DNA of 64,000 bases. It comes from an uncultured bacterium. GTDB taxonomy: Bacteria; Verrucomicrobiota; Verrucomicrobiia; Verrucomicrobiales; DEV007. The position numbers and the translations under genes are program-made. Shown one piece after another: positions 37,356 to 61,602 of this stretch. The stretch is from assembly GCA_963977015.1 (NCBI GenBank), contig CAXBMO010000028.1, positions 20,326 through 84,325 on the forward strand, written 5' to 3'. The first letter of the stretch is position 1, and each line of letters begins with the position of its first letter. The notes beneath the pieces were generated by a model. It was not told the origin of the DNA. It saw only the letters and a list, made by a program, of their open reading frames with translations, and did no database searches.

Positions 37356-38260
37356 TCGCCTCCCATCCGCTTCGGGACTACGCCAAGCTACACTTCATCA
37401 TTCTTCTCTGGGGCATCACCGCGATCCTCGGAAAGATGATCGATTTGCCGTCGATCGAGCTCGTCTTGCTTCGAACCGGGCTCACCGCCATCGGCCTTGC
37501 CTTCTTGCTGCGCATCAAGGGAATCTCCCTAACTTTGGAGCTGAGTTCCGCCCTGAAGTTCATCGGGATTGGCTTCCTCATCGGCGTTCACTGGATTCTC
37601 TTTTTCCTCTCCGCCAAGATCTCCCACGTTTCCGTTTGTCTCGTCGCGCTCGCCACCACCGCGTTCTGGACCGCGTTGCTCGAGCCTCTGATGACGCGCG
37701 GTCGCAGCATTCGTGGTTATGAGCTGCTTCTCGGCTTGATCATGATCGGGGCGATCGCCTGGATCTTCCAGGGCGGCTTTCAGCACATCACCGGCTTCCT
37801 CGTCGGGATCGGCTCCGCGCTGGCCGGAACCGTTTTCTCGATCCTGAACGGCCGTTATGCGCCCAGGCATCATCACTGGGTCATCACGTTTTATGAGATG
37901 TCCGGCGCGGCCCTGTTCTGCCTGCTTTGCCTGCCACTCTCAGCCACGTATTTCACGAACGGCGGCGGCCTCGATCTCGTCCCCTCCCCGATGGAGTGGG
38001 TGTGGCTCCTCATCCTCGTCTTCGCCTGCACCATCTACGCCTACTCGGAATACGTGGAGCTTCTCAATCGACTCTCGGTGTTTACCATCAACCTCGCCTA
38101 CAACCTCGAACCGGTTTACGGCATTCTCCTCGCCGCCATTCTCTTTGCCGAGCACAAGGACCTGGGGAGCCGTTTCTATCTCGGCGCGGTCATCATCCTT
38201 GCCATGGTCATCGCGCATCCGCTTCTCGAACGAGCTTCGCGACAACGCTCCCTAGCCTAG
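37352..38260 (+). CDS. EamA/DMT-family transporter
   Basis: About 10 TM segments; HWILFF and NLEPVYGI. Confidence 0.88.
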   Translation: MIASHPLRDYAKLHFIILLWGITAILGKMIDLPSIELVLLRTGLTAIGLAFLLRIKGISLTLELSSALKFIGIGFLIGVHWILFFLSAKISHVSVCLVALATTAFWTALLEPLMTRGRSIRGYELLLGLIMIGAIAWIFQGGFQHITGFLVGIGSALAGTVFSILNGRYAPRHHHWVITFYEMSGAALFCLLCLPLSATYFTNGGGLDLVPSPMEWVWLLILVFACTIYAYSEYVELLNRLSVFTINLAYNLEPVYGILLAAILFAEHKDLGSRFYLGAVIILAMVIAHPLLERASRQRSLA

Positions 38261-39120
38261 CCTGACGGAAGCAGCAGCGCGACCAGCCAGGGCGTCAAAA
38301 GGCACCAATCCGCGATCGCCCGCACCGAATCCGGCGAAACCCGGTTTGCGAGTCGATGCAAAATCACCAGGCTGGCGAAGGCGAGGCCCAGCGAAAGGTA
38401 AAACCGGGAATCGTGGCCAAGAACGATCATCACCGCAGAACCCAGGACACCGATCATCCCGAAAATCGGCAACTGGTGATGCATCTGCTTCCACCACCGC
38501 GAGGCTCCCCCGGGATCGTTGGCCCGGTCGATTTCCCGGTCCCGGGCTGCGATCACAAAACAGTTCAGCATCACAACGAGGGCAATGCCGGTCAACAGCG
38601 GCCACAACCCGGCTTGATTGCCCAGTGCCGCCCAAATTCCCAGGGCGGAAAACAACCCGATGCCGACTTCCTTGCCGGGAAGCTTCTCCCGGAAGAACAC
38701 CGGAATCACGAAAATCAGCCCGTATCCCAAAACCCCGATCGCGACCCACAACCCGCGGATTGCGGTCTCCGAAACCGCCCCCAAAATGAGCAAACCAGCC
38801 AGCAGAACACCATTCAACGCCAACAGGACCATCAAGAGCGGTTGGAACCGGCGGCCAAACTCCAACCTCCCATTCACGCAACTCCAGTCGCGACAACGCG
38901 CCACATCAATCAAGCGATCCGCCAGGTAAACCGACCAACACGCCAGAAACTGCGCCGCATAAACTTCCCAACGCAGCCTTTGCTCAAGAACCTGGGAAAC
39001 GGCCCACGTCCACGTCGCGACCACAAAGGGCGAATCCAGCCCAAACCAGCTGGGAATCCACCACCAACGAAGATTGGGCCTCAAAACCGCCTCAGAAGTT
39101 GCCGAAGCTCGATCCGCCAT
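38257..39120 (-). CDS. Membrane protein, UbiA-prenyltransferase-like
   Basis: YLADRLID, PGKE and DREID motifs in a multi-TM protein. Confidence 0.55.
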   Translation of the reverse strand: MADRASATSEAVLRPNLRWWWIPSWFGLDSPFVVATWTWAVSQVLEQRLRWEVYAAQFLACWSVYLADRLIDVARCRDWSCVNGRLEFGRRFQPLLMVLLALNGVLLAGLLILGAVSETAIRGLWVAIGVLGYGLIFVIPVFFREKLPGKEVGIGLFSALGIWAALGNQAGLWPLLTGIALVVMLNCFVIAARDREIDRANDPGGASRWWKQMHHQLPIFGMIGVLGSAVMIVLGHDSRFYLSLGLAFASLVILHRLANRVSPDSVRAIADWCLLTPWLVALLLPSG

Positions 39121-39173
39121 GGTTTTTTCACTTTGTGCTGGCGAGGAGCCTGCGTTCGATCAATTCTAAATTC

Positions 39174-39617
39174 ATGAGTGAAGTAGGCATACCTAGCGGC
39201 GAAACCAGTGAGCGCCAAGTGCTTCTGGTTCACGAAGATGTGGCAACGATGCGTCTTGTCCGCGAGGCCCTGGAAAGTTTCACCGTCAGCACGGTCGATT
39301 CCAGCCCAAACGCCGTCTACGCATTCGAGCGCGCGTTGCAGAAACCTTACGACCTGTTCGTCTTCAGCCTTTCGCTTCCGGAAATCCACGGCGAGCTGCT
39401 CTACGAATTGATCGCCAAGGCCTACCAACATTGTCATGCCGGATCGCGAACCGCTCCCGCGATCATCTACCTGGGCGAACAACGCCACGCGGCGCGGGTC
39501 GATGAATTGCAACGCGATGCCCGGGTCAAAGGCGTCGTAATGCGTCCCATCCGGCTCGACACGTTCCTCAAAAAGGCGCACCAAGTCTTGCCGGCCAAGG
39601 ATCCGGCCCAGTTCTAG
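39174..39617 (+). CDS. Atypical (pseudo-)receiver domain protein
   Basis: CheY-like pattern VLLVHED..YDLFVFSLSLPEIHG..MRP; the phospho-Asp and the conserved Lys are replaced. Confidence 0.7.
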   Translation: MSEVGIPSGETSERQVLLVHEDVATMRLVREALESFTVSTVDSSPNAVYAFERALQKPYDLFVFSLSLPEIHGELLYELIAKAYQHCHAGSRTAPAIIYLGEQRHAARVDELQRDARVKGVVMRPIRLDTFLKKAHQVLPAKDPAQF

Positions 39618-39624
39618 AGGGAGC

Positions 39625-40674
39625 CTACTTCCCGCTTTCCGTCGCCGCATCGTCCGTCGCCAACTCAGCGATTTTCTCGACGTCCCAGACCGCACCCTGC
39701 CCTCGACGCTGTGACGCAAGCCAGTTGAGCGCCGCCTCGTGGATGATTTCGTGCCCGCCCTCAAAAATCGTCAACCGCGTGTTGCCGTTGGCCTGACGGA
39801 ACACCGGTTGGCGGCTCCCGTAGAGCTCATCCGTTCCGGCAAAGGGCACTGGAGCCTTTTGCGTTTCGTAAAAACCCGCCATCACTGGCGCAGAAAGCCT
39901 CCCGGACTCCGGGACCACCGCGTTCCAGGCCTGAAGAGAATGGGAAAACGGAACACTGCCGATTCGCCCGTCGTGAACCCCGTGATTGATGTCGAGCGGA
40001 ACCCCCGACGCCGCGCTCAGCCACGTCAACGGCGATCGATTCCGGGCGGATTGTAGTCGATCCGGATCGTCGGCCGGCGATCCCCCCAGCGCCAATTCAA
40101 TGTGTTCGGCGTAACGCACAAATTGCTCGTTTGCGGTGCATTGCTGATGCCACGCCGCGATATCGGAGATCCCGCACCACGCAGAAACACCCGCCCACAA
40201 TTTCGGCGCGCGGCCCGCCATCAACAGCGACATATGTCCACCCCCGGAAACTCCAATCAGATAGATCCGCGCTTCATCGATCGAGGCTTCCTGCTTCGCA
40301 AATTCGACGGCGCTGAGCACGTCCGCCACGGCCAGATCGGAACCCATCGCCTCCGGCGTCCAGTTCGGGCCCCGGAAATTCGGATGAATGAAGGCCCAAC
40401 CCATTTGTTGGCACCAGTCCGAGTAATAAACCTCGTTCCCACTTTGCGTGAAATCGTAAGACCACGTGTGCAGCGCGACCAGCAAGGGCACCTTGCCCGA
40501 CTTCTCGGCGGGCTTCCAGAACAGCGCCGGTTGCAGGCTCTTGTCGCCAGCCGAAACGAATTCGACCCTCTCCACACTTTCCGGATACCCCCTGGTGACC
40601 GGCTGATCTGCGATTGACGACATCTCCATGATCATGACAACAAGGAATACGGCGGGGAATTGGAAAACTCTCAT
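39625..40674 (-). CDS. Alpha/beta hydrolase (S9 peptidase/esterase-like)
   Basis: GVSGGG nucleophile elbow, HGVHD and GGHE. Confidence 0.85.
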   Translation of the reverse strand: MRVFQFPAVFLVVMIMEMSSIADQPVTRGYPESVERVEFVSAGDKSLQPALFWKPAEKSGKVPLLVALHTWSYDFTQSGNEVYYSDWCQQMGWAFIHPNFRGPNWTPEAMGSDLAVADVLSAVEFAKQEASIDEARIYLIGVSGGGHMSLLMAGRAPKLWAGVSAWCGISDIAAWHQQCTANEQFVRYAEHIELALGGSPADDPDRLQSARNRSPLTWLSAASGVPLDINHGVHDGRIGSVPFSHSLQAWNAVVPESGRLSAPVMAGFYETQKAPVPFAGTDELYGSRQPVFRQANGNTRLTIFEGGHEIIHEAALNWLASQRRGQGAVWDVEKIAELATDDAATESGK

Positions 40675-40801
40675 GCGTTCCTTTCACTCACGGAAGCCAC
40701 TTTCTTCTTCAACCGAATGACAAAAAAATTCGTCAAACCCACGACTCCCCGGTTTGATGATTGCTTCAGATCCAGAGAAGTCTATCGTTCCACCCGCATC
40801 C

Positions 40802-42001
40802 ATGGCCTCGAAAGATTCGCAACCCTCCTCACCCAACCATTCCTCCAAAGGGCCATCTCTCGCCGAGGCACTGCAGAACCCCCAAAGCGCGGTTCTCATC
40901 ATCCTCTCCGCGCTCGGGTTGATCATGTTCGGCGTGCTCCTGGGCGAAGCGGTTGAAGGCCTGAAATCGGCGACTCAACCCGGCGATCGCATCTTCATCA
41001 TTTGGCCGACAATTCTCGGGATCGGACTTTGGGGCTGGATGCTCATCGAACGCAGTTTCGTCCATGCGGACCCCACCTTGGAAATCATCGTGCGCCGCGC
41101 CGGCGTCCTGGGATTGGGCATCGTTCTCTGTCGCGACATGGATCCCGGCATCATCCTCGCCGCCATGGCAGGCTACGCGATTTGCGGCGTCCGCACGCGA
41201 TTCCTCCTCACGCTCGCCGCCCTCACCGCCCTGGTCCTCTTTCCCACTTTGCAATCCTGGCTCCAAACCGGGTGGCTCAACAAGATTGGCGTTCGCGACT
41301 TTGCCGGCGATTCCCTCCACATCCTCGCCGGAATGATCGGCGTCGTCGTCCTGACGGGAACGCGATGGGCCAATGGTCAGGCGATTCCTCGTGAAAAAAT
41401 GCGCAAGGACCGCGCCTTCTCCGCCATTCTCGGGCTCATCCTCATTCAACTCGCCTTCGCCGCCGTCCTCGGCCGTCAAGCCTACCGCGAATCCTACCTC
41501 CTCGCGCAAACCGTGGTCACCAACGGAGTCGCCGCCACGCTCGCGGGTGGCATCGTCGCCTGGCTCTTCCACCTTCGCCTTCCGATTCGCCCCCGGATTC
41601 ACATGATCCTCTTTGGCAACATCGCCGGATGGGTCGTCATCTCCGGCGGCGCGAACCATTATTCGGTCAGCCAGTCGCTCGTTTTCGGCGGGCTGGCCGC
41701 CGCGACCATGGTGATGATTCTCTTCATCCTCGATACCCTGGAACTGCGCGACCCCTTTGCCCTCGTCCCGATCCATCTCGCCTGTGGAACGCTCGGCCTC
41801 CTTCTCGTTCCCGCCGGAGCCGGTTCCGACGCCCACCTCGTCATGCAGCTCGTCGCCGTCTTCTCGATTGCCGTCCCCGCCTTCGCCATCGGCTGCCTCG
41901 TCGTGCTTCCCTTCGTCAAGACCAAGCTGCTCTCCAAATATGACCCCACCCTGCTGAGCAAAAAACGTCAGGCCAAGGCGGCGGAGGCGACCTCTTCGTA
42001 A
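40802..42001 (+). CDS. Divergent ammonium transporter (Amt)-like protein
   Basis: GWL..IGVRDFAG.SLH; GNIAGWVVISGGA; RDPFALVPIHLACGTLG. Confidence 0.7.
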   Translation: MASKDSQPSSPNHSSKGPSLAEALQNPQSAVLIILSALGLIMFGVLLGEAVEGLKSATQPGDRIFIIWPTILGIGLWGWMLIERSFVHADPTLEIIVRRAGVLGLGIVLCRDMDPGIILAAMAGYAICGVRTRFLLTLAALTALVLFPTLQSWLQTGWLNKIGVRDFAGDSLHILAGMIGVVVLTGTRWANGQAIPREKMRKDRAFSAILGLILIQLAFAAVLGRQAYRESYLLAQTVVTNGVAATLAGGIVAWLFHLRLPIRPRIHMILFGNIAGWVVISGGANHYSVSQSLVFGGLAAATMVMILFILDTLELRDPFALVPIHLACGTLGLLLVPAGAGSDAHLVMQLVAVFSIAVPAFAIGCLVVLPFVKTKLLSKYDPTLLSKKRQAKAAEATSS

Positions 42002-42068
42002 TGTCGCAGCGGCTAACTAACCGGTTGGCTGCTCCTCCTCGAGAAAGCGCTTCTCGGCTGGCGCAGGT

Positions 42069-42458
42069 TCAAAACGCGAGTTCGCCTTTGATGTCAGGCG
42101 TCCACCTATCCAGTGACTTCTCGCTTCCTTCCAACACGTATTTCACATCGATACTCGTCCCCTTCGGCCGAACAAAAATCGTCTCGTGAACCGTGACCTC
42201 GCCGTGATCCTCACCACCCAACGCAATCCAATCATTCTCATGGCCGCTCGGAGTGATATACCGAAAGGAAAAATCGGTCACCGCCATGGCGCTGTCGTGT
42301 TGGAAGCTCAGCAGGTTTCCTCCGGGTGTAAAGGTCAATGATGCCGTGATCCCCGCATCCGCCCATTCCATCCTCGCCAACGCATCGTCACCCGGCGATT
42401 CCCGGTCCGAGCAGCCACAAAACGGTAGAATCGCCAACACTAGCAATAGGGATTTCAT
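42069..42458 (-). CDS. Hypothetical lipoprotein (probable gene cassette)
   Basis: MKSLLLVLAILPFCGC lipobox; lies downstream of a GTTCGGC core site. Confidence 0.7.
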   Translation of the reverse strand: MKSLLLVLAILPFCGCSDRESPGDDALARMEWADAGITASLTFTPGGNLLSFQHDSAMAVTDFSFRYITPSGHENDWIALGGEDHGEVTVHETIFVRPKGTSIDVKYVLEGSEKSLDRWTPDIKGELAF

Positions 42459-42537
42459 GAGGCCAAGCTAGCAAACGGGCGAGAGCCGCGACAAGACAAT
42501 CCGGGTAAGGAACCGCAGAAACTCCTCGCGTTCTCTC

Positions 42538-42702
42538 GCCGAACGTCCAACGGCAGTTCCTCAATGTGCAATTGGCAGTCGTGTCAGCTTCACCAAACAA
42601 CCCAACCCTCAGAGACTTTTACCAACAGTTGATCACGGTCCTTCACAAGCTACTCGCCACCCCTTCATTACTCTGGCCCGGAGCCACCACTGCTTGTTCG
42701 CC
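42538..42702 (-). other. Degenerate attC-like site
   Basis: Minus strand GGCGAACAAG...TTGGACGTTCGGC: ends resemble the intact attC sites, interior poorly paired. Confidence 0.45.
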
Positions 42703-43243
42703 TTTTTGTGGGGTTGGCGAGAATGCTCTGAATCTTCGATGTGATCTCTTCTAAACTCTGAGAATGCCGCACCTCAATGAAATGATCGCAATGCCCGATT
42801 AGGAAATCTCTGTCCATGACTCTGTTGCGGGTTCTTCCAGAACGGTCTTCGTATGCCAACGCCCACTCCATAAAAAGCGTTTTCTCTGTGTGCATATCCC
42901 CACCCACGTCGATCCTGTCCCCGAAACGTTCGCGCTCCCGTAATTCAAGGCGTCGCATGCGAACCTTCTTCGGGATATCCATGAATACTCCGAAATGGAT
43001 GGTCGGCAGGTCAACATCCCATGTCGCGATCGAACCGCTGAGAATCCAGTCCGACGACTGAGCCAGTGCCTCGGAGAGCAACCGTCTTCTCTCGACCGGT
43101 GAATACTGTTCTTGGAATGGAGGGTTGGTAGGCTTGTGGAAGAAGGAATCCGAATCCAGGACTGGAATCCCCAGCCTGTCACCGAGTAGCTTCGCAGTGG
43201 ATGTGCATCCTGAACCTGGGCCGCCGCTGATCAAGACGCACAT
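42668..43243 (-). CDS. P-loop (adenylate-kinase-like) protein, gene cassette
   Basis: ISGGPGSGCTS, LDSDSFF, WILSGS and RLELRERERFGDRI; ATG 7 nt after the restored GTTAGGC core. Confidence 0.8.
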   Translation of the reverse strand: MCVLISGGPGSGCTSTAKLLGDRLGIPVLDSDSFFHKPTNPPFQEQYSPVERRRLLSEALAQSSDWILSGSIATWDVDLPTIHFGVFMDIPKKVRMRRLELRERERFGDRIDVGGDMHTEKTLFMEWALAYEDRSGRTRNRVMDRDFLIGHCDHFIEVRHSQSLEEITSKIQSILANPTKRRTSSGGSGPE

Positions 43244-43254
43244 TTTCTTAGCCT

Positions 43255-43833
43255 ATCAAGGTAGGAACACCGGTTGCCCGACGCCCTTTCACAGATCCCG
43301 AAGTGCGGATTTCCCGCACCGGGCTCCTCGGAGAATCGCGCAGGTTCACGCAGATTCGTTCTGAAGTCCTTTCGGCTTCCCATTGGTTGATACGATGGCT
43401 GGATTTCGTTCACAAGGCAAGACGGGGTTGATAGGCCAGGTCGATTTCTTCCAACACCCTTGCAGGTAGCAGTTGCCAGATCGCAGTCCACCGTGCTTTC
43501 AGCATCTCCCAGGTCAAGCTCTTGCGCTGGCTTCGCCGGTTGAGCCACTTAAAGATCAAATTATCTCCCCGTGTCATCACATCTTCGTCTTTCTCCGCTC
43601 GGACTTCCAGCCCGGCGGGTCTGACGCCTCATCCTGTGTACGCCTCCTCCATGCTGTTTCGCCAGCCATCCGCTGCAAGAGCGAATGGAAACACCCCTTG
43701 GTCACGCGGCGGCTTCCGCGAATTTTCTCCGGCTTGGCTAACATGAACGCAACACTCGGTAGTGACTACTCGCCAGGTTTTATCACAGAATAACTTTCCT
43801 ATCATAAGAAACGCCTCGCTTCGCTTGGCGCAC
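43255..43833 (-). mobile_element. Internally deleted group II intron (579 nt, class E/F-like) inserted in an attC R' site
   Basis: 5' end GTGCG at 43833. Domain V GAGCCCGGTGCGGGAAATCCGCACTTCGGGATC (about 43326-43294). Domain VI with CCTAC branch A, ending TTGAT at 43255. Removing the element restores GTT|AGGC. Confidence 0.9.
43410..43577 (-). pseudogene. C-terminal maturase (domain X) remnant of the intron-encoded reverse transcriptase
   Basis: Manual translation MTRGDNLIFKWLNRRSQRKSLTWEMLKARW...; KWLNRRSQRKS.TW is a typical maturase motif. RT domains are absent. Confidence 0.85.
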
Positions 43834-43955
43834 AACGTCAAGAATGAGTCACCTGCCACCGAGAACACGCGTAAATTGGAACAATAATGTTCGAACTGCA
43901 GCCATGCGTCAACGCCACCACTGGGCGCAGGTTGATCTCTACCCGCTTGTTCGGC
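43834..43955 (-). other. Integron attC site (126 bp when restored), interrupted at R' by the intron
   Basis: R'' GCCGAAC; GAG[A]TCA[A]CCTGC pairs with GCAGGTGACTC; R' is GTT plus AGGC at 43251-43254. Confidence 0.8.
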
Positions 43956-44539
43956 ATTTTTGGATAGGGTAGTAGTTTCGGACCCAGCAATCCCAACCAC
44001 AGCATTCCCGAAACAATGGATAGGCCGAATCCAACTCCAAATGGACGCAAGGTCCTGTGCTCCCGATGAAAGCGAAAAAGCGAAAAGGCCGCTACGAATG
44101 ACAAAGGCAAGAAGGTGAACGGCAACAAATGATGGTCCAACCCCAAAAACGTTGAAAGCCACGCTTCATCGGAATGAATCCCATCAAAAACCACCTTGCA
44201 CCAACGAAGCCCCGAAAGGGCAAAGGCAGAAAAAACCCACGTAGAATACCGCAAATTTGCGTTCTGATTCCTTCGGTTGCTGGAAAGCCACCAGATAGCC
44301 CACAATGCCAACACGAGCTCTACGAGAGGTCCAGATGCGGTAATAATGGCCAGGTTGGTTGGGTCTACTATTTGTGGCGGGAGGATCAGAGTTTCGGCAT
44401 AGGTAAGAATCGGATCAAAACCCAAAACCATCGCCGCAAAGCAATGCACGCACTCGTGGAGTAAAATCAGAATTGGCGGGAACACCCCCAAAATTGTAGC
44501 CGCAGCAATATAATGAGACTTTTGCTGCGCTGATATCAT
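43838..44539 (-). CDS. Membrane zinc metalloprotease (M50-like), gene cassette
   Basis: HECVH (HExxH) after a TM helix, ASGP and a downstream SD motif; the last ~39 codons run through the attC. Confidence 0.7.
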   Translation of the reverse strand: MISAQQKSHYIAAATILGVFPPILILLHECVHCFAAMVLGFDPILTYAETLILPPQIVDPTNLAIITASGPLVELVLALWAIWWLSSNRRNQNANLRYSTWVFSAFALSGLRWCKVVFDGIHSDEAWLSTFLGLDHHLLPFTFLPLSFVAAFSLFRFHREHRTLRPFGVGFGLSIVSGMLWLGLLGPKLLPYPKMPNKRVEINLRPVVALTHGCSSNIIVPIYACSRWQVTHS

Positions 44540-44559
44540 TTGTGCGGTGGAAGCGTTAC

Positions 44560-44586
44560 TTTTGCCAAACGTTTTATAGGCAAAAA
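44560..44586 (-). other. attI-like or first core site of the cassette array
   Basis: Minus strand TTTTTGCCTATAAAAC-GTTTGGC-AAAA; GTTTGGC nearly complements the cassette R'' GCCGAAC. Confidence 0.4.
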
Positions 44587-45393
44587 GCTTTCTGGACCAC
44601 TTCCATATTCAAATGGGATTCCCATGCTGTCGCCAGTGGTAACCCACTCCGGATTGTGGTGCGCGGTTTACCTTCATGTCGCAGAGGGAATCAGGTTTTG
44701 GCGCAGCCGTCAAGAGGAATGGTGTGAGGTTTTTGAGCCGGCGAGGAAACCGCGAAAACCAGAGCAAACCCGGAACGGTTTGATCATGCCATACTGGGCC
44801 GCCGACGGGTTTCATTATGCCATCATCAAACCTATCGCCTTGAGAACGCATTCACCCAATTACTTTGCCGAGTGCCGCGGGAGCAACCCCACTACACAAA
44901 CGCTCGCTGCGCAAACTCGCCAAACGACTCGGTGTCACCCTCCAGGAACTGCGGGATTATCACGACGCCAGTCCATCTGGTTTTACCTTCGCTCCGCTCA
45001 CGTCATGCTGCGAATGGCCCTTCTCCGGAATCCCGATCTAGGATACCGCTTCGCGGTGAGGCATTGTCTTAGCACAGCGCCTCCTTCCACTCGGGCTCAC
45101 CATCGTGGTGATGTCACCGTCACTGACTGAGCGCAAACAAGATCGATCCACCGCCTCGAATGTAACCGGCGCGAGGGCCGCCATCATCCTCCGCGTCATG
45201 AAGGCAAACGCCTACCCACCTAGCCAAGCCGTCCTAACACCTGCCGAATCGGCATGTCTTGAGAACATGCGGACTCGTCCCGCAGAGAACACGCGATCCA
45301 CTACCGTTCGTACTCCAATCAGGAGCTCAGGTGCCACCGTCCCGCTACCGATCGCATTGCTTGTGCGCGTCACCTTGGAGGGACGAGAGACGC

Positions 45394-45478
45394 TTCTCGC
45401 GGACTTTCAGCCCGCATTTTTTCGCATCCAAAATCCGGGGTTAAAACCCCGGACTGAGCACTTTCGGACTTTCAGCCC
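45394..45478. repeat. REP-like palindromic element
   Basis: Two CGGACTTTCAGCCCG copies flanking the hairpin CCGGGGTTAAAACCCCGG. Confidence 0.6.
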
Positions 45479-45542
45479 GGCGGGTCTGGCGCCTGGTTCT
45501 GCTTTTGGCCGCCACTCAGGAAAGGCACTCCCATTTATCGAA

Positions 45543-61476: not shown

Positions 61477-61602
61477 AGCGAACAAGACGCGGGTGATCAA
61501 CTGCCTGCCCACACTGAATCGGAATCGAAATGAACGTTCAATCTTCAACCCAAAAGTCGGAGCGCATTGTCGGCAGGCCGTGACATCGTTTTGACGATAC
61601 TA
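61477..61602 (+). other. attC site (126 bp) with R' core reading GAT instead of GTT
   Basis: R'' AGCGAAC; GTG[A]TCA[A]CTGCCTGCC pairs with GGCAGGCCGTGACAT; ends TTGAC-GATACTA. Confidence 0.7.

Follow-up and report, generated by a model that had tools for sequence, protein, structure and literature searches.

The window, a 64,000-nt stretch of DNA from an uncultured member of the Verrucomicrobiales, contains two co-oriented genes that are separated by an attC site and a 579-nt group II intron (Table 1). The intron runs from 43833 to 43255 on the minus strand (5' GUGCG ... AU 3'), as read directly from the sequence, which is the strand of both flanking ORFs and of our top-strand attC model (R1, see below). 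The upstream ORF has a weak Peptidase_M50 match (E 0.008) that falls below the cut-off; its TGA stop codon sits in the attC spacer TTGACGTT, and the attC overlaps its last 39 codons as well as the stop. The downstream gene starts with an ATG 11 nt past the end of the intron. Promoter and terminator scans of 42500-44700 returned matches at chance level. The DNA runs that hold the window are labelled as marine metagenome.

Table 1. Positions of the intron, its remaining parts, the attC site and the neighbouring genes in the window.
Feature	Position	Strand	Basis
ORF-less, internally deleted group II intron, 579 nt	43255..43833	-	sequence; RF02005 and RF00029 in E-value mode; homology
Domain I (DI), intron nt 1 to about 202	43632..43833	-	aligned with DI of 22 other copies; RF02005 model positions 1-95
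DIII 3'-strand remnant and DIVa with maturase start region (GAAGAUG)	43579..43631	-	RF02005; comparison with the C6 copy
56-codon open frame, maturase C-terminal remnant (FKWLNRRSQRKSLTW...)	43410..43580	-	ORF list; tblastn
Domains V and VI (DV, DVI)	43255..43328	-	RF00029 alignment; alignment with six other miniature copies
attC top strand, R'' (GCCGAAC) through GTT of R'	43834..43955	-	121-126-nt family with covarying L''/L' arms
AGGC, remainder of R' (GTT/AGGC), now the first four 3'-exon bases	43251..43254	-	sequence
Upstream ORF, 233 aa, membrane protein with HExxH motif	43838..44539	-	ORF list; profile search
Downstream cassette-type gene, 191 aa, P-loop kinase-like, AAA_18	42668..43243	-	ORF list; profile search

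At gathering thresholds, Rfam gave no matches in the window. In E-value mode, RF02005 (group-II-D1D4-6) matched 43797..43617(-) with 31.0 bits (E 1e-6; gathering threshold 49), and RF00029, which covers DV and DVI, matched 43328..43255(-) with 27.8 bits (E 0.005; gathering threshold 40). These sub-threshold matches are credible because full-length relatives of the intron exceed both thresholds (70.5 and 46.3 bits in copy L080, 57.7 and 44.5 bits in copy L081); homologous copies score 42-46 bits with RF00029. The GUGCG at 43833 and the AU at 43256-43255 recur identically in related copies. On the minus strand, the junctions read ...CTCATTCTTGACGTT/GTGCGCCAAGCG...GTTCCTACCTTGAT/AGGCTAAGAAAATG, with the upstream flank ending in ...TTGACGTT and AGGCTAAGAAAATG forming the downstream flank. 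In silico excision joins GACGTT to AGGC, so that a 126-nt attC regains its R' core, GTTAGGC, 7 nt ahead of the ATG at 43243; exons joined in this way would read ...GACGTT-AGGCTAAG.... An earlier, sequence-only reading of this DNA had proposed a miniature group II intron at 43251-43836 from its GUGCG end, AGC triad, bulged A in DVI and 3' AU. All of these were confirmed, and a covariance-model match near 43255-43330 is present as well, though below the gathering threshold of 40, whereas the proposed span included three to four flanking bases too many on each side.

The ends of attC sites follow the consensus RYYYAAC for the inverse core R'' and GTTRRRY for the core R', and the site hosting the intron begins with an R'' of GCCGAAC at 43955-43949. 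On the cassette (top) strand, the intron separates the GTT of R' from its RRRY, which is where the earlier reading had placed it. R1 was built from 12 attC sites of 121-126 nt in 10 genomes, and the 86.7 bits that it gives to the window site are circular, the site being one of the 12 training rows. The support for attC comes from the family as a whole: in the 12-site alignment, 15 of the 19 attC pairs show compensatory changes, 92.4% of the cells form pairs against 66.1% in shuffled alignments (none of 500 reached 92.4%) and 31-48% in slid ones, and the extrahelical or unpaired columns (19, 23-24 and 28) fall on the 5' arm only. The sites further share RYYYAAC and GTTNNNY ends and an asymmetry between a 5-nt and a 6-nt spacer. 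In a survey of 134 host-family genomes (Verrucomicrobiales MAGs), R1 matches were present in 101; they form same-strand arrays with sites 0.6-1.2 kb apart, for example on contig C36 of the window's own genome, and flank small accessory genes on both sides. IntI (TIGR02249) scored above the cut-off in 77 of the 134 family genomes and in none of 14 controls. Among the 150 R1 matches listed, 18 contigs carried a match within 10 kb of an IntI gene, 13 of them in the divergent arrangement of classical integrons.

As a rule, attC sites terminate promoterless cassettes that are arrayed on one strand near an integron integrase, and IntI recombines them in the form of a folded bottom strand; the surroundings of the window site are less typical. 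R1 finds only two sites in the window, 17 kb apart, and no neighbouring attC or integrase was detected within 17 kb of the one that hosts the intron; the genome does encode IntI, on a separate contig (C1), with no cassette array visible beside the gene. These observations would fit a reading in which the 122-nt palindromes are some other hairpin repeat, REP-like or a terminator, serving the intron in the way that terminators serve class C introns, and the hairpins at which one of its sub-lineages sits are of an ordinary kind (see below). We nevertheless regard this as very improbable, given the integron-type ends, the unequal spacers and extra bases confined to the 5' arm, the same-strand arrays and bracketed accessory genes, and the 13 contigs on which, among the matches listed, the repeats diverge from an integrase gene. 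The host site is an attC, as had been supposed from the window's sequence. Other candidates in the window were rejected: the arms of a putative 161-nt attC behind the kinase gene (42540-42700) are mismatched and R1 is silent there at E up to 10, and a hairpin behind a lipoprotein ORF (about 42010-42060) resembles an ordinary terminator-type palindrome. Heuristic attC finders, based on R''/R' complementarity with folding or on a CGTTAGNC word search, gave non-specific matches and were dropped.

The intron belongs to a lineage that is present in 31 of the 134 host-family genomes (the window's own and 30 others), and the lineage as a whole prefers the same site. Of 35 copies, 31 directly follow a GTT in the 5' exon and read in the direction of the cassettes, with GTT expected at 1.8% of random positions, and the GTT junction of the window copy is therefore not due to chance. 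The longer ending ACGTT precedes 23 of these 35 copies. On the other side, an ATG lies within 35 nt of the 3' flank at 32 of 38 junctions (39% expected by chance), and the fourth 3'-exon base is a pyrimidine at 32 of 38 related junctions. Outside the training set, an R1 match ends exactly at the junction at 10 of 24 sites. A lineage homing to the top-strand R' position had been conjectured from the single window copy, and these junctions support it. One sub-lineage inserts behind ordinary hairpins, at ACTGTT.

Full-length relatives serve to place the ribozyme and its maturase. L080 is 2144 nt long with a 1578-nt ORF, so that its ribozyme amounts to about 566 nt. The reverse transcriptase (RT) and maturase domains of full-length relatives match RVT_1 (E 1.6e-34) and GIIM (21.5 bits, cut-off 23), and no endonuclease domain family was found in their maturases at E up to 0.01. 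The nearest relatives of the maturase found outside the Verrucomicrobiota are approximately 40% identical, and PDB maturases from IIA, IIB and IIC introns give similar scores against the lineage maturase (115-133 bits). Class C introns use a CGC triad. By its ribozyme features, namely the AGC triad, the 5-nt DV loop and RF02005 as the best Rfam model for DI-DIV, the present lineage does not look class C-like, in line with the E/F-like motifs that the sequence-only reading had noted. Overall, the ribozyme is IIB-like with hallmarks of IIE/IIF introns (the 5-nt DV loop), and the maturase is endonuclease-less. A literature search for RF02005 returned Rfam papers alone.

Both ends of the window copy are well preserved. 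In DI, 39 of the 40 RNAalifold consensus pairs of the family alignment are standard pairs, and a tetraloop-receptor-like CUAAG/AUGG motif is present, with CCAAG in the window copy. DV has the AGC triad and a 5-nt terminal loop, GAAAU (GUGCGG-GAAAU-CCGCAC), which is GAAAA in relatives, DVI has a bulged UA with the branch A followed by the 3' AU, and together the two domains cover the whole length of the RF00029 model (1-77). The middle of the intron is another matter. Just upstream of the DIII-DIVa remnant it has lost DII, J2/3 and the first half of DIII (the 5' half); here RF02005 model positions of about 96-219 (about 124 positions), which align with high posterior in L080, are reduced to 4 nt. 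Compared with a full-length copy on contig C6 of the same genome, from which it is approximately 12% diverged, the window copy shares only nt 1-200 and 274-579, and nt 200 to about 345 of the C6 copy have no counterpart. The maturase gene is reduced to its two ends. The C-terminal piece of the intron-encoded protein (IEP) of the C6 copy matches window positions 43562..43419 with 81% identity over 48 aa (tblastn), and no RT-domain sequence is left in the window intron, which bears out the earlier description of a maturase remnant without RT domains.

We could not assign an EBS1. A 6-mer scan for the complement of each copy's own 5' exon recovered conserved helix strands only, and inspection of the DI alignment yielded no EBS1 that could pair with ACGTT. 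A candidate column, CAG-U/G/C-AG, which seemed to track the exon, covaries with an internal helix instead.

The start region of the maturase gene in DIVa is the usual high-affinity binding site of the maturase, and its retention alongside an intact DI (39 of 40 pairs), DV and DVI is what might be expected if the window copy were still functional, spliced with the help of a maturase supplied in trans and retromobilised. Its genome holds related introns, and its family is rich in ORF-less relatives, one form of which appears to have been propagated. This form comprises six copies of approximately 0.8 kb in five genera, with common deletion breakpoints near nt 670 and 2052; since these copies share their breakpoints despite being only 67-79% identical to one another (save one pair at 94.7%), they would point to propagation in trans, in a MITE-like manner. 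In addition, a 504-nt copy in another genome (L105) has a similar layout of DI and DV-DVI, so such forms recur. Yet a functional window copy seems unlikely to us. J2/3 contributes to the catalytic pocket, and DII, DIII and DVI are described as required for complete splicing by Nagy et al. (2013, PMC3753933); the window copy is missing DII, J2/3 and the 5' half of DIII. Its deletion form is single-copy in the genome. The sole cognate IEP gene in the assembly, on C6, loses its reading frame immediately past the FADD motif, and the two other group II RTs of the genome are only about 33% identical to the cognate IEP. Intact IEP copies may have gone unassembled, given that the assembly is 95% complete and C6 ends within an intron.

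The population data point the same way. DNA contigs from one run (X3) span both junctions with no differences, and in another (X5) a diverged strain does so with 13 differences in 521 nt and with 33 differences and 8 gaps in approximately 1000 nt; this related strain has the insertion in the identical position. No empty-site allele was seen among the contigs of four DNA runs, some of which cover the stretch partly. The sequence-only reading had weighed a trans-mobilisable element against a dead remnant. The former is not supported for this copy, with its deleted domains, single copy and frameshifted cognate IEP, and the latter fits in part, since DII and J2/3 are gone and DIII has lost its 5' half. 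The window copy is thus most likely an immobile, non-splicing relic, judging by its anatomy. The intactness of DI, DV and DVI at approximately 12% divergence could reflect ongoing constraint, and it could equally predate the deletions.

Whether the intron first inserted at this place is a separate question. Integrase crossover takes place between G and TT, 2 nt upstream of the intron, and it is therefore conceivable that the window copy arrived by integrase recombination, as the head of the kinase cassette, instead of retrohoming there. The kinase gene is patchy and cassette-type, with homologues in 7 of the 134 family genomes. The best of these (67% identity), in genome G014, is bracketed by two R1 attC sites, and the natural R' of the intact attC ahead of it is GTTGTGC, the same 7-mer that the intron creates at its junction with the GTT triplet kept. 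With an IntI encoded in the genome as well, it is plausible from the sequence that the integrase could move the intron together with the downstream cassette, at its head. A search with the window query found no kinase homologue in the three other genomes of the genus, so there is no orthologous empty site for comparison. However, among the junctions examined, no pair of the same intron and cassette occurs behind a differing upstream attC, and we consider arrival of the window copy by this route improbable; it would in any case be compatible with a lineage that homes to attC and would alter only the place of first insertion.

We therefore favor the reading that the window holds the decayed remnant of a retromobile group II intron whose lineage probably homes to the top strand of attC, inserting after the GTT of R' and ahead of its final four bases. 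What the intron is, where it ends and what it has lost are shown by the data, as are the attC character of its site and the site preference of the lineage; for this copy we infer a retrohoming origin, a loss of splicing and neutrality. A full-length intron of approximately 2.1 kb would have entered the attC behind the 233-aa ORF by reverse splicing and reverse transcription. Two internal deletions would have followed. DII, J2/3 and the 5' half of DIII would have gone in one of them, and in the other the maturase gene except for its start region and its last 50 or so codons. With DI, DV and DVI left over, complete splicing and reverse splicing would no longer be expected, and the copy would have become an immobile fossil, tolerated because the 18-nt spacer that it occupies separates a stop codon from the ribosome-binding region of the next gene.

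The site of IIC-attC introns likewise lies just past a GTT, which belongs to the R'' box as read along the bottom strand, and, provided that this placement holds, it and the present site would be mirror images. In the literature on IIC-attC introns (S.ma.I2 and others; PMC3001079, PMC8876359), these introns are described as occupying the bottom strand and running antisense to the cassettes, at the end of attC nearest to the ORF, and are said to 'split the gene from its attC'. The present lineage resembles them in its endonuclease-less maturase, its site specificity at attC and its position next to a folded imperfect palindrome. Unlike them, as so described, it lies on the top strand in the sense of the cassettes, at the R' end, and unlike their class C ribozyme its own combines an AGC triad with a 5-nt DV loop and DI-DIII of the RF02005 type.

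The one paper in print that deals with sense-oriented IIB introns adjoining attC is that of Sonbol and Siam (2021, PMC7923331), whose main text describes UHB.I2, a IIB1 intron with a CL1 maturase on a soda-lake contig, and, from a CALIN of Halorhodospira halochloris, fragments of class E maturases (H.ha.F1/F2). The rare class E examples at attC that the sequence-only reading mentioned are thus in print. Like these elements, the present introns are non-class-C, cassette-sense and directly behind an attC or attC-like hairpin, and in both sets the maturases lack an endonuclease domain and fragments are frequent. However, that paper describes three elements from two sources, compared with 35 5' junctions at a fixed R' position here; for UHB.I2 it reports poor exon conservation, and its main text sets out no GTT/ position. 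The search in that paper of 22 marine and 7 freshwater metagenomes yielded none, and its elements come from a soda lake and Halorhodospira, whereas the present lineage is found in Verrucomicrobiales MAGs, and the runs that contain the window are labelled marine.

Among bacterial introns more broadly, ORF-less copies nearly always share a genome with related ORF-bearing copies, as reviewed by Zimmerly and Semper (2015, PMC4424553), and this is also true of the window copy. The ORF-less introns discussed there keep a complete ribozyme, in contrast to the window copy, from which DII, J2/3 and half of DIII are missing and whose related maturase gene is frameshifted in the assembly. With regard to the ribozyme, IIE/IIF introns are described by Nagy et al. 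(2013, PMC3753933) as having a 5-nt terminal loop in DV and a size of 450-700 nt. The present lineage shares with them the DV loop (GAAAU in the window copy, GAAAA in relatives), a ribozyme of small size (about 566 nt outside the ORF in L080) and IIB-like ends (5' GUGCG and 3' AU). By contrast, the EBS1 and EBS2 loops of IIE/IIF introns match the 5' exon, as that paper has it, and none could be assigned in the present lineage. These classes are further marked by an alpha' on the tip of the DId3 hairpin and by a maturase of clade E or F; inspection of the DI alignment yielded no alpha-alpha' assignment.

It is possible, and we put it forward only tentatively, that all of these features belong together: a IIE/IIF-type lineage peculiar to verrucomicrobial integrons that has converged with IIC-attC introns on the sense strand, that maintains long-lived, trans-propagated miniatures of approximately 0.8 kb, and that is shuffled by the integrase. 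The convergence would consist in the use of an attC hairpin with a short GTT-ended motif as target, on the strand opposite to that of IIC-attC introns, and shuffling as cassette heads would be possible because insertion leaves a usable R' (GTTGTGC).

To our knowledge, the textbook view is that only class C group II introns target attC, antisense to the cassettes. The window copy itself is a mere fossil of the process, and probably a dead one, and its lineage is a second, apparently unrelated one that targets attC in the sense orientation, always entering R' at one particular base as a preference of the lineage, and is widespread across an environmental bacterial family. This makes attC hairpins a recurrent landing pad for retroelements, and it offers a natural system for how an IIB-like intron recognizes a structured DNA site. 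Non-autonomous group II introns are considered rare in bacteria, and the ORF-less forms described here bear on how such introns persist. Since introns of this lineage can sit within cassette transcripts, their splicing, or its loss, could gate the expression of the next cassette.

The insert in the window is a miniature group II intron of the kind, at the site and on the strand proposed by the sequence-only reading, which is confirmed on these three points. Across the insert the minus strand reads ...GGTGACTCATTCTTGACGTT/GTGCGCCAAGCGAAGCG ... GGTGTTCCTACCTTGAT/AGGCTAAGAAAATGTGC, with slashes at the two junctions. The window gave no Rfam match at gathering thresholds; in E-value mode it gave two co-linear minus-strand matches, to a D1-D4 model and to domains V-VI. 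Three members of the same family, L080 (full-length, 2144 nt), L081 and L016, exceed both gathering thresholds, and the weak scores of the window copy therefore reflect decay rather than chance.

Features at the intron locus of the window, and Rfam scores of three related intron copies
Feature	Position	Strand	Details
Intron insert	43833 down to 43255	-	579 nt
Upstream ORF, 233 aa	44539..43838	-	terminal TGA inside TTGACGTT
Downstream ORF, 191 aa, kinase-like	start 43243	-	11 nt past insert
RF02005 (group-II-D1D4-6) match	43797..43617	-	31.0 bits, gathering 49, E 1e-6
RF00029 (domains V-VI) match	43328..43255	-	27.8 bits, gathering 40, E 0.005
L080			RF02005 70.5 bits; RF00029 46.3 bits
L081			RF02005 57.7 bits; RF00029 44.5 bits
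L016			RF02005 71.6 bits; RF00029 42.3 bits

DNA matches to the intron occur in 31 of the 134 host-family genomes (14 of 30 genera), and relatives lie in MAGs labelled Verrucomicrobiales, Verrucomicrobiia and Akkermansiaceae. Full-length members (2089-2144 nt) encode a ~525-aa maturase that matches RVT_1 (E 1.6e-34) and, weakly, GIIM, and no endonuclease family was among its domain matches. One maturase of 78% identity (L093) comes from a contig binned into a MAG labelled Actinomycetota, which points to horizontal spread or else to an error of binning.

The window intron sits in an attC. A common architecture unites twelve 5' flanks taken from related introns in 10 genomes: each is 121-126 nt long, starts with RYYRAAC followed by AAG and ends with GAC-GTT. 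Their alignment has compensatory changes in 15 of 19 pairs, and 92.4% of its cells are paired. Column shuffles gave 66.1%, with none of 500 as high as the real alignment, and sliding the partners by 1-3 columns gave 31-48%. Unpaired extra bases are confined to the 5' arm, a one-arm asymmetry expected from the extrahelical bases of attC sites. In the window's own genome, where 150 of 1791 candidates were scored, the covariance model of this attC family, R1, had 22 matches, including a same-strand array with 0.6-1.2-kb spacing on contig C36. At E up to 1e-10, matches were found in at least 101 of the 134 host-family genomes, the counts being lower bounds with 26 candidates scored per genome. The score of the window site itself (86.7 bits) is circular, as the site was a training row of R1. 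The intron-bearing attC is solitary in the window, where the sole other R1 match, on the opposite strand at 61477-61598 (+), is a second attC of the 122-nt family (85.3 bits, not a training row), 17 kb from the intron site and ending in GACGAT where the family has GACGTT.

The integron integrase model (IntI, TIGR02249) scored above its curated cut-off in 77 of the 134 host-family genomes, and it matched none of 14 control genomes (E up to 1e-40). The window's own genome also has a match above the cut-off (contig C1, 291 bits versus 265). When the match lists were compared by eye, with 150 of 954 R1 matches listed, at least 18 contigs had an R1 match within 10 kb of an IntI match among the matches listed; in 13 of these the site is directed away from the integrase, as in classical integrons, and in 5 it lies downstream of the integrase gene in the same direction. 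The covarying alignment, the breadth of R1 matches and the sites near IntI together bear out the earlier identification of the insertion site as an attC. The kinase-like gene downstream of the intron belongs to a family found in only 7 of the 134 genomes, and R1 sites of 54.9 and 64.2 bits flank its best homologue (67% identity, genome G014). The intact attC before this homologue (L114, G014:C272:609-740) has the R' core GTTGTGC, the same 7-mer that intron insertion makes at the 5' junction. At 430-550 aa, many IntI open frames in the host family exceed the 315 positions of the model, which suggests an N-terminal extension.

Across the lineage, the 5' flank ends in GTT at 31 of 35 junctions, versus 1.8% expected by chance, and in ACGTT at 23 of them. 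The first base of the 3' flank is C in 30 of 38 copies and A in 6, position 4 is a pyrimidine in 32, and an ATG lies 5-22 nt downstream in 32 of 38, versus 39% by chance. At sites outside R1 training, a match ends exactly at the junction in 10 of 24, with one further match offset by 2-3 nt; the remaining sites include shorter attC forms judged by eye (e.g., own contig C36 at 11943), a possible attI beside an integrase (G088:C33), and an ACTGTT sub-lineage after ordinary hairpins. From these junction statistics and R1 matches it follows that the lineage targets the top strand and inserts after GTT, ahead of the final four bases of R', co-oriented with the cassettes, so the proposed homing to the top-strand R' core holds. 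Integron crossover takes place at G/TT, and the intron insertion point is 2 nt downstream of it. No EBS1 was assignable in the lineage copies, and for this reason we only infer that the target is recognised by pairing to ACGTT; alternatively, the lineage may recognise the hairpin, as class C introns do.

The four non-GTT 5' junctions comprise two ending in GAC, one in GCT and one belonging to a different intron (L036). In the two GAC cases, L055 (G112:C370) and L044 (G088:C58), the intron's GTGCG comes immediately after the GAC of the attC spacer, and in L055 the R1 match reaches 2-3 nt beyond the junction, into the intron; the missing GTT could stem from slippage that deleted 3 nt, or from crossover on the intron's own first G. 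The ACTGTT sub-lineage, L025/L081 (G133:C120), L028 (G011:C252) and L053 (G103:C12), sits after ATACTGTT, which is not an R1 attC; its G133 copy follows an integron-integrase gene of the same strand at a distance of ~160 nt, just past a perfect hairpin. At L045/L101 (G088:C33:114086) the intron starts after ...ATGATGTT, ~580 bp from the start of a divergent IntI gene (406 bits), and the contig breaks off after 124 nt of intron; because there is no upstream R1 match, this site is possibly an attI. In two genomes of one genus the intron is represented by its first 108-185 nt alone (L102, G027:C54; L103, G028:C324); an R1 attC precedes each fragment, and a co-oriented IntI gene follows ~0.8-1 kb downstream from where the intron starts.

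The orientation differs from that of IIC-attC introns, which are described, in the available text of two sources, as inserting into the bottom strand, antisense to the cassettes, and parting a gene from its attC (PMC3001079, PMC8876359), whereas the present lineage is top-strand and sense. The accessible part of a 2015 review gives attC targeting for class C only (PMC4424553). In the available text of Sonbol and Siam (2021), one IIB1/CL1 intron and two class E fragments lie in sense directly after attC or attC-like hairpins, and none were found in the marine and freshwater metagenomes screened (PMC7923331). With its 5-nt DV loop and a ribozyme of ~566 nt, the lineage fits the description of IIE/IIF introns in the available text of PMC3753933. 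The full texts searched included none that describes a lineage of this kind in Verrucomicrobia, or its exact site. Sense-oriented non-class-C introns after attC are therefore already known, and the verrucomicrobial lineage and its exact site appear to be new relative to the literature searched.

ORF-less copies are frequent in this lineage. The 2015 review, in its available part, calls ORF-less introns of bacteria rare (PMC4424553). Six such minis (687-849 nt), from six genomes and five genera, retain full-length positions 1 to ~670 and ~2052 to 2144, and therefore have the same breakpoints, yet their mutual identity is only 67-79%, save for one pair at 94.7%. This combination suggests a non-autonomous form that is old and propagating. 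Five of the genomes with minis were searched for a cognate maturase, and 3 gave a match. The window copy, L105 (504 nt) and L110 (1025 nt) carry other deletions, individual to each.

A genome-wide search for other copies, as envisaged in the earlier reading, recovered one long copy in the window's own genome, on contig C6 from 343039, and four partial ones. The RT/maturase frame of the C6 copy is broken by a frameshift directly 3' of the FADD motif, and the copy is also ended by the contig end. On C36, a cassette array at 38213-44670 (-) has seven same-strand R1 matches on a contig without an integrase; inside it, an intron 3' fragment (39970-39668) is preceded by an IS110-type-looking transposase fragment, named from reading the translation. 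Just past the pectate-lyase-like gene in the window, 31 nt (45464-45494) are 94% identical to intron nt 205-235, a DIII/DIVa remnant; they overlap a sub-threshold Rfam match to Acido-Lenti-1 RNA (45434-45479 (+), 30.2 bits, gathering 37, E 1.2e-4), and a word similar to GGGCTGAAAGTCCG recurs at ~45415.

The sequencing runs listed for the window included no RNA run; the contigs of four DNA runs were compared over 42600-44600. Run X3 bridges both intron junctions with no differences, and a diverged strain in run X5 also bridges both; there, 521 nt contain 13 differences, and about 1000 nt contain 33, along with 8 gaps. None of the contigs from the four runs joins across the intron as an empty site in this interval. 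The insertion therefore predates the divergence of the X5 strain.

The window copy retains an intact DI (39 of 40 consensus pairs in a 23-copy alignment), an intact DV with the AGC triad and the 5-nt loop GAAAU, and an intact DVI with the bulged UA. It shares with the C6 copy only nt 1-200 (88%) and nt 274-579 (84-85%). Roughly model positions 96-219 of RF02005 (~124) are reduced to 4 nt in its alignment; in L080 a hairpin, a linker and a branched domain fill the same positions with high alignment posterior, and we read these as DII, J2/3 and DIII. The ~70 nt after DI resemble the 3' strand of DIII and DIVa of the C6 copy, including the maturase start region, and are followed by the last ~48 codons of the maturase (43562..43419, 81% identity by tblastn), then DV and DVI. 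In the available text of PMC3753933, J2/3 contributes to forming the catalytic pocket, and DII, DIII and DVI are required for complete splicing, DI and DV being enough only for single hydrolysis events. Lacking DII, J2/3 and a full DIII, the window copy would be unable to complete either splicing or reverse splicing. The suggestion that it is a mobilisable element is thus not borne out, given these deletions. The window copy itself is probably a fossil, and the interest lies in the lineage and its ORF-less offshoot.
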